From assembly GCA_965203095.1 (NCBI GenBank), contig OZ241877.1, forward strand, positions 608,001 to 672,000: DNA of 64,000 bases, given 5' to 3'. Of the stretch, positions 21,001 to 27,000 are shown piece after piece. The position numbers were made by a program. The DNA is from Bdellovibrionales bacterium. GTDB taxonomy: Bacteria; Bdellovibrionota; Bdellovibrionia; Bdellovibrionales; UBA1609. Position 1 is the first letter of the stretch. Every line of letters begins with the position of its first letter.

Positions 21001-24000
21001 TGTCCGTGACGAATCCTTGAGTCTGTTTTGTAAAAATCGTTTGGTATTGACAGAGGGCTTTCCCACTTATGGAGGGCTGGCAGGAAGAGATCTTTCAGCC
21101 ATTGCCATAGGTTTAAAAGAGGCTTTAGAGCCTTCTTACCTTGAGCAGAGGATAGCCTCTGTATCTCACCTGCATGAGCAGTTAGCTGAAGGGAGCATCC
21201 CTTTACTAAAACCTCCCGGCGGGCATGCTGTTTATATTGATGCTAAAAAACTTTTGCCTCATATTCCTGTATCAGCTTATCCTGGGCAAGCTTTAGTTTC
21301 GGGCTTGTATGAATACTCTGGGATTCGCAGTTGTGAGATTGGTTCTGTAATGTTTGGTAAGACATTAGCCAATGGGGAGAAAACATATCACTCCAAAGAG
21401 TTGGTCCGGCTTTGTTTGCCCCGCCGGGTTTACACTCAGTCCCATATAGATTTTGTGGCGGAATCCATTATTTCCTTTGCTCAAGGGGAGGCCCTTCAGT
21501 TAAAGGGTGTTAAATTTATAAAAGAACCTCCTTTTTTACGCCATTTCACTGGTCATTTTGCATGGATATAAATGATTTATGTTGAATACACTTTATAAAC
21601 TTCCCAAGGCCCTTTTGGCCAGCCTTTTTATAGGGGGCGGAATTTTGTTTATTATTATGAACGACCCTCCTCATCATTTTTGCGACAGTCAAATTGAGCA
21701 TTTTAAAAAGGTTCAGAAGGGGCTCCTCTTTGATAATTCTGAAGATTTTCGGAAAGAAAAAAAGATTTTAAAAAGAAAGCAGACCCTTTGCAAAAAAGAG
21801 AACACTCCCGGAGCTTGTTATGAGTATTTTGCCTATTTAAAAAAAATATTAAGGGGCTTTGATCTTATTTCCCAGGACTGTCTATCTTTGGTTTATTCCC
21901 AACCGGAGGTGAAGGGAGCCTTTTCTTCCGCCCTTATGCTGATGACAGCTGTGGCTTGGAGGGAAGAGGCTTTGACTGGCCGAGTGAGCCGATACCACTG
22001 GCTGACCCGATCGGATTTGTATTTGTTTTGTGAAGTGAAAAACAAATACATCATGCAATATGGACAGGACAGCTATCAGTTGTTGGAAAATCAAATTTTA
22101 AAGCTTTTACCTGTTTCAAAAAAAGTGCCCATTCAGCAGTTGATGAAAAAAACCATTTTGCATGAATCCTGCTTAGCTTATAGATAATTCTCAGTAAAAA
22201 AACCTACACTTTTAATAGAAAAAAGATATAGAGATTTTAAAAGATGGACAAAACCGCTTTGATAAAGAGCTTAAAGAAAGAAAAGCTGGATCAGATTTTA
22301 GAAAAACAACAAAAATAAGGTGTTTAGTAGTGTATTATTTATATTTGAAAGGTTTATGAGATATCATCTCTGGTCGCCCAAAATCGTCAAAAGATTGAAA
22401 ATGGGTGGGAAGAAGACCCAAATTTCTGGCTTTTTTAATGGCCTTTTTCATTAACCTTTCCTGCTTGCTGGTTAAGCCATTAGTTCGAGCTGGGGTGATT
22501 TTTGCCCCTTCAATAAAGCCGTAAAGGGATAATGGGTCTTTATAATCAAAATGAAGATGATGACGGCTTTGTTTAACTGGCTTTTTTTTCTCAAACAACA
22601 AAATGATCTCCTATTTCAGCTCTTTAAACCTATTTTTTAGGGAAAAGTCAATCCTCTCTTGATAATTTTTTAAAAAAATAGAAAAAGCCTTAGTTTTCTC
22701 ACTATGACAGCAAACTTCCAGTAATAAAAACACAATTTTTATTTGCTATATCAAAAAAAAAATGATAAGTGGAATGAAATTTTTACTTTTTTAAGGTAAA
22801 ATAACTTTTAAGAGGATAAGCCGATGGCCAGTTGTGAATTGAGCGGGAAAGCTCCTGTAGTTAAAAATTTAGTGAGTCACTCTAACATTAAGACCAAATC
22901 CAAAGCTTTGCCCAATATTCAATCTAAAAAATTTTTTAGCTCTCGCCTCAAGCAGTTTTTTAAATTAAAAGTAGCTGTGAGTGCTATTCGGAATGTAGAT
23001 AAGGTGGGTGGTTTTGACCTATTTATTGTCCAGCAAAAAGACAGCTTGCTCTCTCCTAAGGCTTTAAAAATTAAAAAGCAAATTTTAAAAAAAAGAAAGG
23101 TCAGTCATGAAGTTAAAAATTAAAGTGGGAGACGAAGTTCAGGTCACTGCTGGAAGTGATAAAGGGCGAAAAGGTTCTGTTTTAGAGATTCAGCCCATTC
23201 AACAAAAAATACGGATTAAAAATGTTCGTGTTCAAACCTGTTTTGATAAAGAAAAAGGGATTCAAAAGCGAGAGGGCTTTATTCATTACTCTAATGTGAA
23301 ACTTGTCAAAAAAGCTGAAACCAAAGCCTATAAAAAATCTAAAAAGAATTCTGGCAAACAGGGAAGGCTTTTTCGCTAATGATATTCAGTTTTATCAGCT
23401 GGGCTTATTTTTCTTTTCAGGCCGGTTGGGCTTTGGAGCTACCGGTTAAAAACTATTTTTTTTGTTTGCGGGAAAAGGCCATCGCGGTAGAATCCCGAAC
23501 TATTAGAGTGCAGGAGTTTCCCGAAAAGGAAAATTTTTGTGCTGTAATTTACTCTGTTAAAGGTCAAGACAAAATAGTGGCACAAGGGCGATGGCTTGCT
23601 TTTTGTGAAAAGGCGGCAAAAAAATTAAAAACCCGCCTTCAGCAAAACTTGTGGAAGTGCAACCAAAAAACTAAAGTTCAAGTTTTTTACTCTTCTTCAT
23701 AAAGAGAAGTGCTTGTTTTTAAAAGCTTCTCTCCCTCTATAAAACCCCTCTTGCCCTAATTCCTCCTCTATACGAAGCAAGCGGTTGTATTTTGCTGTTC
23801 TCTCCCCTCGCGACACACTGCCGGCTTTAATCTGCTCTGTGCCCCAAGCTACAGACAGATCGGCAATGCTACTGTCTTCCGTCTCACCACTCCTGTGGGA
23901 CATAATGCAGGAAAAACCGGCGGACTTGGCTTTTAAAACCGCCGCTTGGCTTTCTGTAATAGTGCCCGCCTGATTAAATTTCACAAGTAAAGCATTGCCT

Positions 24001-27000
24001 GCCCCCTGTTCAACCCCCTTTTTTACACGGTCTTTTTGACTCACGAATAGGTCATCCCCCACAAGCTGAATTTTTTTTCCCAATTTTTTAGTCATTCGCC
24101 CCCACCCTCCCCAATCCTCCTCTGCTAAACCATCCTCTATACTGATAAGGGGATACTGCTGGGACCACTTTTCATAAATGGATATCATCTGATCGCTATT
24201 TAGAGACTTCCCTTCAAAATGATAGCATTGATTTTTATAAAATCCCGAAGAGGCACAATCTAAAGCTAAGGCCATTTTTCCCGTATAAGAACATTTTTCT
24301 ATAGCGGATAAGATCAGGTCAAAAGCCTGAGTGGAAGAAGAAAGTGCCGGAGCAAAGCCCCCTTCATCCCCTACAGAGGTAGAAAAACCCTTGGATTTTA
24401 GCTGGCCCTTCAAATGATGAAACACCTCGCAACCGGCCCTTAAGGCGGATTTAAAAGATTCAAAACCAAAAGGAACTATCATAAATTCCTGAATGTCCAT
24501 ATTGCCCCCTCCGTGAAGGCCACCATTGATAACATTCATTAAAGGAACAGGAAGAAAGAGATCCTGCCCCTTAAGTGCCGCATGCTCATAAAGTGGTTTT
24601 TTAACGGCACAGGCCGCTCCTTTTAAACAAGCCAGAGAAATACCTATTAAAGTGTTGGCCCCTAAACGAGCTTTTAGTGGGCTGGCATCTTTTGTCAAAA
24701 GAGTTTTGTCAATCATCGCCTGATTTTGTATATCTTGGCCCTTTAGGGCGGGCAAAAGTGAGCGAACATTTTGGCAAGCTTTTTTTAAACCCTTAGAGAA
24801 AAAATACTGAGGATCCTCATCTCTTAGCTCTTTGGCTTCATACTGGCCTTTAGAAGCTCCACTGGGCACAGATCCTCTACCTAAAAATCCATCTTCAGTT
24901 AAAACATCCACCTCTAAGGCCGGTGTGCCCCGGCTGTCAATGATCTCTCTGGCTTTTAAATCAGATATAATGTTGGACTGAAAAGCACTTTTTAAACCAA
25001 TTAAAGGGAGAGGTAAAGTCCGTTCCCTTTCATGATAAATTTTCACTATCTCACTTTCCCAGTTCACCTCCGTTGGATCTTGGCCTAAGAAAACAGGAAG
25101 AGTCTCTAACACGGATTGCAAATAATCCCTCACTGTGGAGTATTTGGCTTTATTGAAATCCGTTTTAAAGGAGAAAAAATCCTTCCCGTCCGCCTTCCCG
25201 TAAATGGACATATTAGGGGATACAAAAAAACTCAAAAATTTGTCTATTTTATTATAAATGGCTTTGGGACTGTTAAAAAAATGAAGAGAACCCTCTAAAC
25301 CACCCCAAGATTTTAAATGGGGGGCATTATGCCCCACGGTGGCCACCAGATCTTTGTCTATAAATCTCTGCTGATAAGCCCTTCGAATATTCCTCAACAA
25401 GAGTTCCACTTGCTCCGCATCCATCCAAGAGTGGGGGTCGCGGATAAAATCAATTTCTAAAGGAGTCATTTCAAAAAACCGGCTGGTATCTAATTCATAC
25501 CGGCTCAAAAAAGTGAAAAAAGAGTTGGTGATTTTCCCGCTAAAGTGCATACTTATAACTTAGCCATGAAAACGAAAAAAGTCAATTTTCTTTAAAAGAC
25601 CTTTCTCTTCCCAAGATAATTATGAGTTGGCCCAATATGGATTTTCGTTCTTTTTCCCCTCAACCGGTTGTGGGTGTGGACGAAGCCGGGCGAGGTTGCT
25701 TAGCTGGGCCTGTTTTTGCAGGAGCGGTCATTTTGAACTTCCCTCAACTGTTTAAAGACTCCAAGCAAATCAGTGCAAAACAAAGACAAATTATGGCTGA
25801 AGAAATTAAAAAACAGCACCGTTTTTCCATTGGAACAGCCAGTGTGCAAGAAATTGAAACACTCAATATTCATCAAGCGAGCCTGCTGGCTATGAAAAGG
25901 GCTGTGGAGGGGCTGAACCTCACTCAAGGCCATATTCTTGTTGACGGGGCATTCCCTATCCCCTCACTACCCCATATATCTCAAACCCCTATTATCCAAG
26001 GAGATAGAAGGTTTGCCCCTATCTCTGCAGGAGGGATTTTGGCAAAAACAGAAAGGGATAAGTTGCTTTTAAAATATAGCCAACAGTATCCTCAATACGG
26101 TTTTGAAAAGCATAAAGGCTATGCAACAAAAAGCCATAGAGAGGCTGTAAAAAAATATGGCCCCTGTCCTATTCACAGGAAAAGTTTTTCTAAGGTTAAG
26201 GAGTTTATAAATTCAGATCAGATGATACTGGACCACAAAATATAGGGCTTCTGGCACTTTAAGCACCGCCAGGGCCACAGGATAATCTTTTGAGAAAGGC
26301 TTTGGATTATTTTTTAAAGTGCTGATCAATTTTAGATTCAAGCTTATCAATCTTTTTGTTTGTGTCTGTTATATGATTGGTTCATGGGTATTCTCAATAT
26401 AAGATTTTGTAAGAAAGCTTTGTTTTCAATGCTTTTAAACTTTTTTTCTTCCTCAATGGGCGAACTCAGGAAAAAAAATAGGAAATTTTTTCACTGAGCT
26501 TGATTTTTTGTATTTTTTTGCTTATCTATTTAACCGTTTCAATCAGCAGGAGGAAAATTATGAAGATTATCTTAATTATTGGTGCTTTTATTTTTGCTGA
26601 GATGTTTTTCAGCAAGTCAGCTCTTGGTTCAAGCTCATGTATAGATGCATGTCCAGAGGAAAAAGAAGACAATAGTCAGAACGAAACAAACGAAGAGGTT
26701 TTGTTTTCTGCTATCCATTCAGGGGACTTATCAGCTGTTCAGGCTGTTTTAGAAAAAGGAGTGAATATAGAGGCCAGAGATGAAAAAGACCGGACCCCTT
26801 TGCATGTAGCCAGTCTCTTGGGGTATCCAGAAGTTATCCGTATTTTATTGGACGCGGGAGCAGATATAGAGGCCAGAGATGAAAAACACTACTGGACCCC
26901 TCTGTTGATGGCCAGCTTTTTGGGACATCCAGAAGTTGTCCAAACTTTAATAGAGGCAGGAGCCAACATAAATGCTGAAGATGATTATGGAAAGACCCCT

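Follow-up and report, generated by a model that had tools for sequence, protein, structure and literature searches.

An enolase fused to a haem-less, H-NOX-fold sensor-type domain in Bdellovibrionales, a probable end point in the erosion of a histidine kinase encoded upstream of eno

Introduction

Why does the only enolase found in a bacterial genome carry an additional N-terminal domain with the fold of a sensor, and does this arrangement reveal anything about the control of the enzyme? The question is posed by a locus in a window of 64,000 nucleotides (contig OZ241877.1) from a member of the Bdellovibrionales (genome G000, 90% complete), which a preliminary description had read as a Rosetta-stone link between a haem-less relative of H-NOX and enolase. 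The explanation that we favor, at a probability of about one half, is that the domain is an output-less sensor or adaptor that became tethered to enolase as its operon neighbor. Listings from literature searches contained no study of this gene, on which expression or essentiality tables in the supplements of Bdellovibrio papers may bear, no N-terminal enolase fusion of this kind and no allosteric two-module control of an enolase.

Results

The fused gene

The locus comprises the following features.

23697..25550, reverse strand: fused enolase ORF, 617 aa, without internal stop
25029..25550, reverse strand: unnamed sensor-type domain (residues 1-174) with an H-NOX/V4R/VirS-like fold and no haem ligands, whose orthologues form the input domain of a kinase encoded just before eno
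24975..25028, reverse strand: linker (residues 175-192), the stump of the ancestral kinase linker, judged by pLDDT <50 at 175-190, the junction alignment and codons
23697..24974, reverse strand: complete enolase (residues 193-617 and stop), judged by TIGR01060 score, catalytic positions and structure match

As previously described, this uninterrupted ORF is the sole enolase match in the genome and begins with an extra domain, Pfam placing Enolase_N at residues 195-323 and Enolase_C at 332-612. Enolase domains are present in 50 of the 51 matches to residues 1-190 (the query included; the others 59-79% identical), and contigs from all four sequencing runs (4/4, from one study that may be the source of this DNA) span the junction without a difference; the fusion is therefore real and not an assembly artefact. 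The conservation of the fused frame in relatives was thus upheld, with the fusion being rare on a broader scale: 1 of 145 genomes in the sample of the order and 9 of 105 matching genomes in the family. A search of longer proteins for other fusion partners yielded 58 matches, namely enolase fusions, kinases and one unannotated 366-aa form, which is weak evidence against such partners.

The enolase part is complete and predicted to be catalytically intact. It scores 537 bits with the TIGR01060 equivalog (cut-off 300), superimposes on solved enolases at TM 0.95, and 13 of 13 positions with presumed catalytic or Mg-binding roles are invariant in 50 of 50 alignment rows, about four of them redundant. 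There is no in-frame ATG, GTG or TTG in linker residues 175-192, the length of the linker varies among fused proteins, and an internal start is absent from four of six g1 fusions, in which the enolase would depend on the upstream start. In g84-type fusions, a Met stands nine codons ahead of the enolase core and might yield free enolase.

The N-terminal domain

Residues 1-195 produced no relevant Pfam match at E<=10 (one weak ZnuA match, E 0.08) and no NCBIfam match at E<=0.01, as expected of a domain said to belong to no Pfam family. The H-NOX-like fold was likewise recovered: the predicted structure (pLDDT 94.2, pTM 0.91) has its best match in H-NOX 6bde (Z 12.2, 162 of 178 residues aligned, rmsd 3.3; Foldseek versus H-NOX, E 1e-4), and VirS matches at Z 10.5 over 168 residues. 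Also in agreement with the original account, the haem-binding signatures are not conserved. The YxSxR motif, which we take to be the propionate-binding motif of H-NOX, occurs in 15 of 16 true H-NOX controls, whereas even a looser pattern, sought anywhere in the sequence, is found in only 4 of 106 family members. The proximal haem-ligating His on helix F of H-NOX is absolutely conserved in 598 sequences, according to PMC7108781; residues 98-110 of the present family, equated with this region by a weak profile alignment and secondary structure, contain no conserved His and instead display Y/F108 and an invariant F109. G73 is conserved in 100 of 106 members and H74 in 76 of 106, the latter falling to 35 of 65 in a wider alignment, and no conserved Cys cluster was seen in the family alignments.

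In sequence, the domain appears to resemble H-NOX less than it does the AraC/VirS-type ligand-binding domain PF12625. PF12625 is the best sequence-profile match (hhalign probability 35%, E 4e-4, 82 columns, with a PF12625 profile of only three sequences; no Pfam match to it at E<=10), and the profile match to H-NOX has a probability of 6.7%, or 0.03-0.1% in global profile alignment. The atlas neighbors at 0.80-0.90 are exclusively unnamed clusters from Myxococcota and Thermodesulfobacteriota, the leads below 0.9 being PF12625 (0.83) and DUF2378, and the domain profile, run against the sequences of solved structures, gave four chance matches (best E 0.12). For the distant domain family, the best 150 of 336 representative matches were examined. 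Thus, the term 'H-NOX-fold' should not be taken to mean 'H-NOX relative'.

The gene upstream of eno

The domain was found in 146 of 151 genomes, and its gene, or the kinase that it heads, lies directly upstream of eno in 136 of the 143 genomes that hold both; accordingly, the earlier claims of a near-universal single-copy gene and of its pairing with eno hold. Profile search did not detect the domain in five genomes, four of which have eno (G019, G029, G215 and G203; 83-99% complete), and four others keep both genes far apart (G211, G207, G216 and G038). Outside the order, eno is directly downstream in 12 of 12 fetched orthologues from four families. In family f15, an intact kinase stands away from eno at five of five loci. 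The most persistent neighbor is eno, found at 30 of 37 long loci, compared with 9 for cpaF and about 9 for ftsB, within limited flanks.

The upstream partner had been described as a free-standing gene of about 239 codons ending 180-600 nt before eno. Such short forms exist, as a minority confined to close relatives: in the 145 listed genomes of the order (G058 left out), the frame measures 300-420 aa in 97, 421-560 aa in 41 and <300 aa in six, and is fused in one. The spacing has to be corrected, the median gap from stop to eno start being 13.5 nt (<=30 nt in 64 of 84). Across the order, what precedes eno is not a free-standing domain but an orphan sensor histidine kinase or what is left of one. 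The 107 fetched orthologues, among which long and fused forms are over-represented, include seven intact kinases (with H-box, G1 and G2 boxes and HATPase_c at E 1e-24 to 1e-28), 29 with an ATPase remnant lacking the H-box, 41 with the hairpin only, 21 consisting of domain and coil, and nine fused; duplicate loci and two broken frames (L104 and L105) were left out of the domain alignment. A HEINNP-type H-box is present in 11 of 12 fetched eno-linked orthologues outside the order, and on the tree the ATPase state changes 14 times and the H-box state five times. All of the fusions fall in lineages that had already been pared down to domain and coil, and in the G000 protein only enolase-superfamily domains were detected, with neither an H-box nor HATPase_c. 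Thus, the domain-headed kinases, previously listed among 'other proteins', represent the ancestral state of this very orthologue, which makes the fusion the end point of kinase erosion; the sequences form a visible series from intact kinase through loss of the His, loss of the ATPase domain and reduction to domain and coil to fusion with enolase.

A putative leaderless promoter

That no ribosome-binding site is called at the fused ORF remains correct, but as a doubt about the ORF it is answered by a putative promoter placed for a leaderless transcript.

25580..25585, reverse strand: TTGACT, sigma70-like -35 hexamer of a putative leaderless promoter, with the same spacing in 56 of 101 orthologues
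25557..25562, reverse strand: TAAGTT, candidate -10 hexamer, separated by 17 nt from the -35 and by 6 nt from the ATG

With this placement, the transcript would begin at or close to the ATG of the fused ORF. The pattern was chosen after viewing upstream sequences and rests on shifted-window and shuffle controls; shifted windows contain 0-3 instances compared with the 56 at orthologue starts (5 of 106 starts without ATG, GTG or TTG were left out). A Shine-Dalgarno-like signal precedes the domain gene in 10 of 101 cases, as against 74 of 84 for eno, which suggests that the eno operon begins with the domain gene and that the latter is leaderless. The pattern is weak in the fusing clade (g1 2/10, g83 0/13, g84 1/4), and a generic promoter scan did not report the G000 site (8 of 12 matches, threshold 9), its sites being no commoner than in shuffled sequences.

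Selection and number of fusions

Substitution rates indicate that the domain is under strong purifying selection, both where its gene lies far from eno (dN 0.046 vs. dS 1.19 for the G211/G207 pair) and in fused pairs, where dN/dS is about 0.02-0.11 wherever dS could be estimated and the dN of the domain does not exceed that of the enolase in 13 of 14 pairs. Within fused proteins, domain and enolase are conserved at 72% and 73%, respectively, in the g1 type and at 89-91% and 85-87% in g84. A single origin of the fusion is rejected by the AU test (p 1.1e-6 for the domain, 7.6e-13 for the enolase), indicating that it arose at least twice, in two small-genome genera. Free trees (a first, larger tree was built by quick search) suggested four separate fusions, but joining the two g1 groups was not rejected (p 0.22 and 0.31); nor was joining both g84 groups (p 0.26), which already form one clade in the enolase tree.

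Discussion

Comparison of the orthologues shows that the N-terminal domain was once the sensory input of an ancient cytoplasmic histidine kinase, an orphan encoded next to eno; the sequence signals suggest that the gene is the leaderless first cistron of the eno operon. Within the order, this kinase has repeatedly lost the phosphorylated His, then the ATPase domain and then the helical hairpin, whereas the input domain was kept under strong selection; it can thus be predicted that the domain now functions with no catalytic output, most probably as an adaptor that binds protein under the control of a small ligand. Set beside unfused sister genomes, the fusions of two small-genome genera are seen to have lost what remained of the coiled-coil tail, the stop codon and the ribosome-binding site of eno through an in-frame deletion; given that the genes were already adjacent and probably co-transcribed, such a deletion would be enough to fuse them. 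We propose that the enolase is still enzymatically active and acts chiefly as a carrier that ensures 1:1 co-expression with the domain. Enolase is oligomeric and could conceivably replace the lost dimerizing coil. The true target would be another protein and not necessarily enolase. Against the carrier reading, no alternative partner was identified in this analysis, the promoter pattern is weak in the fusing clade, and the domain fused to the same partner at least twice, possibly up to four times, that partner being its most persistent neighbor.

The main rival, possible albeit rather unlikely in our estimate, is a genuine Rosetta stone, in which the domain would contact enolase as its regulatory subunit, whether ancestrally or by later change, sensing a metabolite such as a phosphorylated three-carbon intermediate; enolase or its product would once have gated the kinase, and the domain would now tune enolase activity. 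The retention of the gene pair both within the order and in several families outside it, the independent fusions, the equal conservation of the two parts and the discarding of every kinase part except this domain all fit such a scheme, as do the near-invariant polar residues S4, K/R6, S10, D38, E49 and E149, which suggest a polar ligand or contact site, and the solved complexes in which, by the titles of structure entries, enolases bind RNase E, RibD and Csm. Against it, the two parts are not packed in a fixed arrangement in the full-length model (pTM 0.68, close to the fraction of the chain that is enolase), with a disordered linker of freely varying length; adjacency is explicable by co-transcription alone; the intact kinase of f15 resides away from eno; and enolase functions in the four genomes in which the domain was not detected. 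An undocked AlphaFold monomer built from 51 alignment rows is weak evidence against contact, which could involve another subunit of the enolase oligomer. Inter-domain covariation in 150 paired rows (effectively about 97) was dominated by gaps and phylogeny, which the top scores followed even within domains. Thus, the originally proposed link is favored by the repeated fusion and persistent adjacency, set against the lack of fixed packing and the genomes that keep the genes far apart, and the fusion only hints at a physical or regulatory connection between domain and enolase. We regard as doubtful a fuller version, a dedicated enolase sensor of predatory Bdellovibrionota, in which the ancestral kinase read central-carbon status via a haem-less H-NOX-like domain docked on enolase, the output was lost many times, and the contact was kept and fixed by repeated fusion as an allosterically regulated two-module enolase.

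A role as adaptor for the neighboring Tad pilus or cell-division genes' machinery, with the fusion carrying enolase to that site or simply along, is improbable. The order cpaF - kinase remnant - eno - ftsB recurs in several families, and kinase-dead forms retain the hairpin motif, as they would a binding surface; but the links to cpaF and ftsB are lost more often than that to eno, the gene seems to have its own promoter, and in G000 the fused gene is separated by 55 kb from ftsB and by >300 kb from the closest-looking cpaF-type gene. A haem-based gas or redox sensor like H-NOX that uses other ligands is very improbable: the fold, G73 and H74 are compatible with it, and haem-free redox sensing by H-NOX is described in PMC7108781, but the haem signatures, a conserved Cys cluster and an appreciable profile match are lacking, and H74 is poorly retained in the wider alignment. 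Finally, a decaying passenger, kept only as the translation start of the g1 enolases that lack an internal one, is hardly tenable, being largely refuted by the dN/dS values and the intact fold.

The present analysis delineates a family of sensor domains that has no name and spans almost the whole order, together with a gene conserved among Bdellovibrio-like predators. In B. bacteriovorus HD100, eno is presumably Bd0796. By gene order, the HD100 orthologue should lie between eno and cpaF, which is bd0793 according to PMC3818213, making the gene testable in a cultured strain. The family offers a natural progression of unusual completeness, from kinase through pseudokinase and output-less sensor to enzyme fusion, in which losses recurred and fusion happened at least twice. 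If the domain regulates enolase, it would constitute a new point of control over lower glycolysis and gluconeogenesis; if it does not, the locus clearly exemplifies a fusion brought about by operon adjacency.

Comparison with known systems

With H-NOX/HNOB (PF07700) the domain shares the fold across its whole length, small residues at both hinge positions (G73; A/S/G146) and a link to histidine kinases and cyclase-like proteins; it differs in lacking the proximal His and YxSxR and in its identity of 7-15%. Moreover, the H-NOX proteins covered in PMC7108781 act on a separate HnoK kinase, whereas the present domain sits in cis, N-terminal to its kinase. True H-NOX genes occur separately in 17 of 151 genomes of the phylum. 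The AraC/VirS-type N-terminal domains (PF12625 Arabinose_bd; VirS 8rcw, CdpR 5chh) are alike in fold and provide the best profile match, but the family has no AraC helix-turn-helix, its output being a kinase, nothing or enolase. The intact orthologues resemble cytoplasmic HisKA/HATPase_c sensor kinases with a HEINNP box and a long hairpin insert in H-box, G1/G2 and HATPase_c, the nearest models being T2SS_HK NF038348, EspC and AtoS, all under cut-off; unlike these, the family is orphan, located before eno and kinase-dead in most of the order, and G000 retains nothing of the kinase core. Compared with bacterial enolase (TIGR01060), which it matches over the full length, the G000 protein is distinguished by its 190-residue N-terminal extension.

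The fused enolase gene

The preliminary description had claimed that the only enolase of this genome is fused to an N-terminal domain without a Pfam family, and each part of that claim is upheld by the present analysis. The gene comprises:

window 23697-25550, minus strand: domain-enolase fusion, a single open frame of 617 codons
residues 195-323: Enolase_N (Pfam)
residues 332-612: Enolase_C (Pfam)

A six-frame search of this 1.80-Mb genome (90% complete) yields no other enolase match, and the whole protein scores 537 bits against an enolase equivalog cut-off of 300; residues 1-195 have no relevant Pfam match and no NCBIfam match. 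Enolase domains are present in 50 of the 51 proteins matched by residues 1-190, and contigs from four runs of one study span the junction with zero differences; the fusion is real. The enolase is intact: its model matches solved enolases at a TM of 0.95, and 13 catalytic or metal-binding positions do not vary in any of 50 aligned fused rows, about four of which are redundant. In this genome, the 15 codons that lead up to the enolase core include no in-frame ATG, GTG or TTG. A TTG precedes the core in two of the six fusions of g1, a small-genome genus, and an ATG lies nine codons upstream in all three fusions of g84, another such genus, so that a free enolase may be made from an internal start in the latter.

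An RNase HII gene (window 25622-26245, plus strand) is divergent from the fusion at a distance of 71 nt, and the arrangement recurs in G171 and G170. A gene for a PEP synthase/pyruvate phosphate dikinase regulatory protein (32013-32999, minus; 288 bits, cut-off 225) would add a second regulator of the PEP node, at 6.5 kb from eno; this nearness is probably due to chance. Elsewhere, the window encodes a tryptophanase/tyrosine phenol-lyase family enzyme (20153-21571, plus) and a 431-aa ORF without Pfam or NCBIfam match (27412-28707, minus), which adjoins a gene that by inspection is cysteine-desulfurase-like, a similar pair being found in G171 and G209. Tandem paralogous ORFs of 531 and 766 aa (16008-17603 and 17622-19922, both minus) are built of Trp-rich repeats of about 60-65 residues, which presumably resemble the 'integrase repeat unit'; the 531-aa ORF has no NCBIfam match.

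Fold and distribution of the domain

The domain spans residues 1-174; its AlphaFold2 model, on 106 rows, has a pLDDT of 94.2 and a pTM of 0.91. Nine of 48,161 chains match it at Z>=8, all of them H-NOX domains or VirS; the best H-NOX domain reaches Z 12.2 (rmsd 3.3 over 162 residues) and VirS Z 10.5. TRAPP, BcsD, CdpR and V4R-type sensors follow at Z 6-8, and Foldseek agrees. Conserved positions include S4, K/R6, S10, D38, W42, E49, G73, W82-G83-x-L85-D86, F109, E149 and P152. Remoter members of the family form the N-terminus of other kinases (G262:C4, G340) and of cyclase-like proteins (G251, G244), the latter assigned from their motifs, with only a weak GGDEF match in a family scan; this distribution fits a general cytoplasmic input domain.

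Two earlier claims hold in a larger sample. The domain, described as a single-copy gene in all genomes searched, is detected in 146/151 genomes of the order, nearly always once; and its adjacency to eno recurs: in 136 of the 143 genomes with both, this one included, eno has the same orientation and starts at most 2 kb downstream (of the others, three lie within 4 kb, three are split by contig ends and one is far away). Across the phylum, it is found in 77/251 sampled genomes; of the families outside the order, some have it, and in others it was not found.

Erosion of an upstream kinase

Domain proteins of the order are mostly 300-530 aa long. Among 107 fetched orthologues, a set enriched for long and fused forms, seven are intact kinases with a HEINNP box (H-box) and HATPase_c, 29 have lost the H-box and still carry an ATPase remnant, 41 are reduced to a helical hairpin with the conserved motif L.DY..R.QQL.TLL..Q, 21 consist of the domain plus a coil, and nine are fused to enolase. 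A fast tree implies 14 changes in the state of the ATPase domain and five in that of the H-box. Outside the order, all 12 fetched orthologues from four families directly precede eno, and 11 have the H-box, so that a kinase-eno pair is the ancestral state.

Several further observations concern these proteins. The hairpin motif (L.DY..R.QQL.TLL..Q......V..AM.RV.W, e.g., residues about 270-310 of L069:6062-7084(-)) equals the sensor domain in conservation across the 41 forms lacking His and ATPase, is missing from the fusing clade, and looks like a candidate binding surface of a pseudokinase. In f15, a family outside the order, 5/5 orthologues are kinases with the H-box in a non-eno context (L160-L164), divergent from a conserved gene pair; one gene of that pair is receiver-like by inspection and possibly encodes the cognate partner of the ancestral kinase. 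Also outside the order, a kinase independently truncated to 296 aa lies directly upstream of eno (L159, G241), the same erosion in another lineage. Finally, G149:C4:547012-551829, a stretch of less than 5 kb, carries the gene pair twice, in inverted orientation and with equal scores; this is a duplication or an assembly artefact.

A TTG, a 16-18-nt spacer and a TA hexamer, with a predicted transcription start at about the start codon, occur in 56/101 orthologues, against 0-3 in shifted windows and a mean of 2.5 (maximum 9) in shuffles. This genome has the pattern, which is weak in the fusing clade. SD-like motifs precede 10/101 starts of the upstream gene versus 74/84 eno starts, and the median gap between the two genes is 13.5 nt. 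Together, these features suggest that the upstream gene opens the operon as a leaderless cistron and that eno is transcribed along with it. A leaderless transcript would account for the missing ribosome-binding site of the fusion, and co-transcription could have kept the genes adjacent without any functional link between their products.

Fusion events and function

Fusions occur in 9/105 matching genomes of the family, six in g1 and three in g84; both genera (genomes of 1.2-2.5 Mb) also have unfused members, with proteins of 237-276 aa. Tests on the domain (p 1.1e-6) and on enolase (p 7.6e-13) both reject a single fused clade. Eleven g84-type fused proteins were found, and further fusion origins are suggested, not significantly. 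Unfused sisters keep coil remnants resembling the kinase linker, so that the fusions are derived.

The comparisons show that the domain descends from a kinase, that the kinase output was lost repeatedly while the domain was retained, that fusion happened more than once and that the enolase is intact. The domain would act as a ligand-gated binding module, and we put at about one in two the probability that adjacency drove the tethering of an independently useful domain.

That fusion was repeated, that eno is the most persistent neighbour (30/37 long loci), and that the domain survived when everything else was lost would suit a regulator of enolase; we nevertheless find this doubtful, given a linker that is disordered (175-190; pTM 0.68 in the full-length model) and variable in length, the retention of both genes far apart in G211, G207, G216 and G038, unrelaxed selection in the one far-apart pair tested, and five genomes in which the domain was not found, four of them with eno. 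In a covariation analysis across the two parts, the top scores tracked gaps and phylogeny. A pilus or division adaptor is unlikely. The gene that precedes the domain gene in several compared loci is matched by bd0793, a cpaF gene according to PMC3818213.

Haem sensing is highly improbable: the family alignment has no conserved His at residues 98-110, and YxSxR, present in 15/16 true H-NOX controls, has a looser counterpart in 4/106 family members, which agrees with the earlier claim of an H-NOX-type fold without haem motifs. With an H-NOX profile match of only 6.7% in addition, we rejected assignment to H-NOX proper. Least credible is a mere passenger: mean identity in 47 g1-type rows is 72% for the domain versus 73% for enolase, g84 pairs have a dN of 0.04-0.06 versus a dS of 0.9-1.3, and the domain remains constrained after fusion.

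Relation to known systems

Neither Pfam nor NCBIfam has a name for the domain family, and literature searches, whose coverage excluded most subscription papers, returned nothing on the gene, the pair or the fusion. Taken singly, fold, kinase type and enolase all belong to known kinds. With H-NOX the domain shares its fold but lacks YxSxR and the proximal His, which PMC7108781 describes as absolutely conserved in H-NOX; its profile match to PF12625 proteins (35%, on three sequences only) is higher than that to H-NOX.
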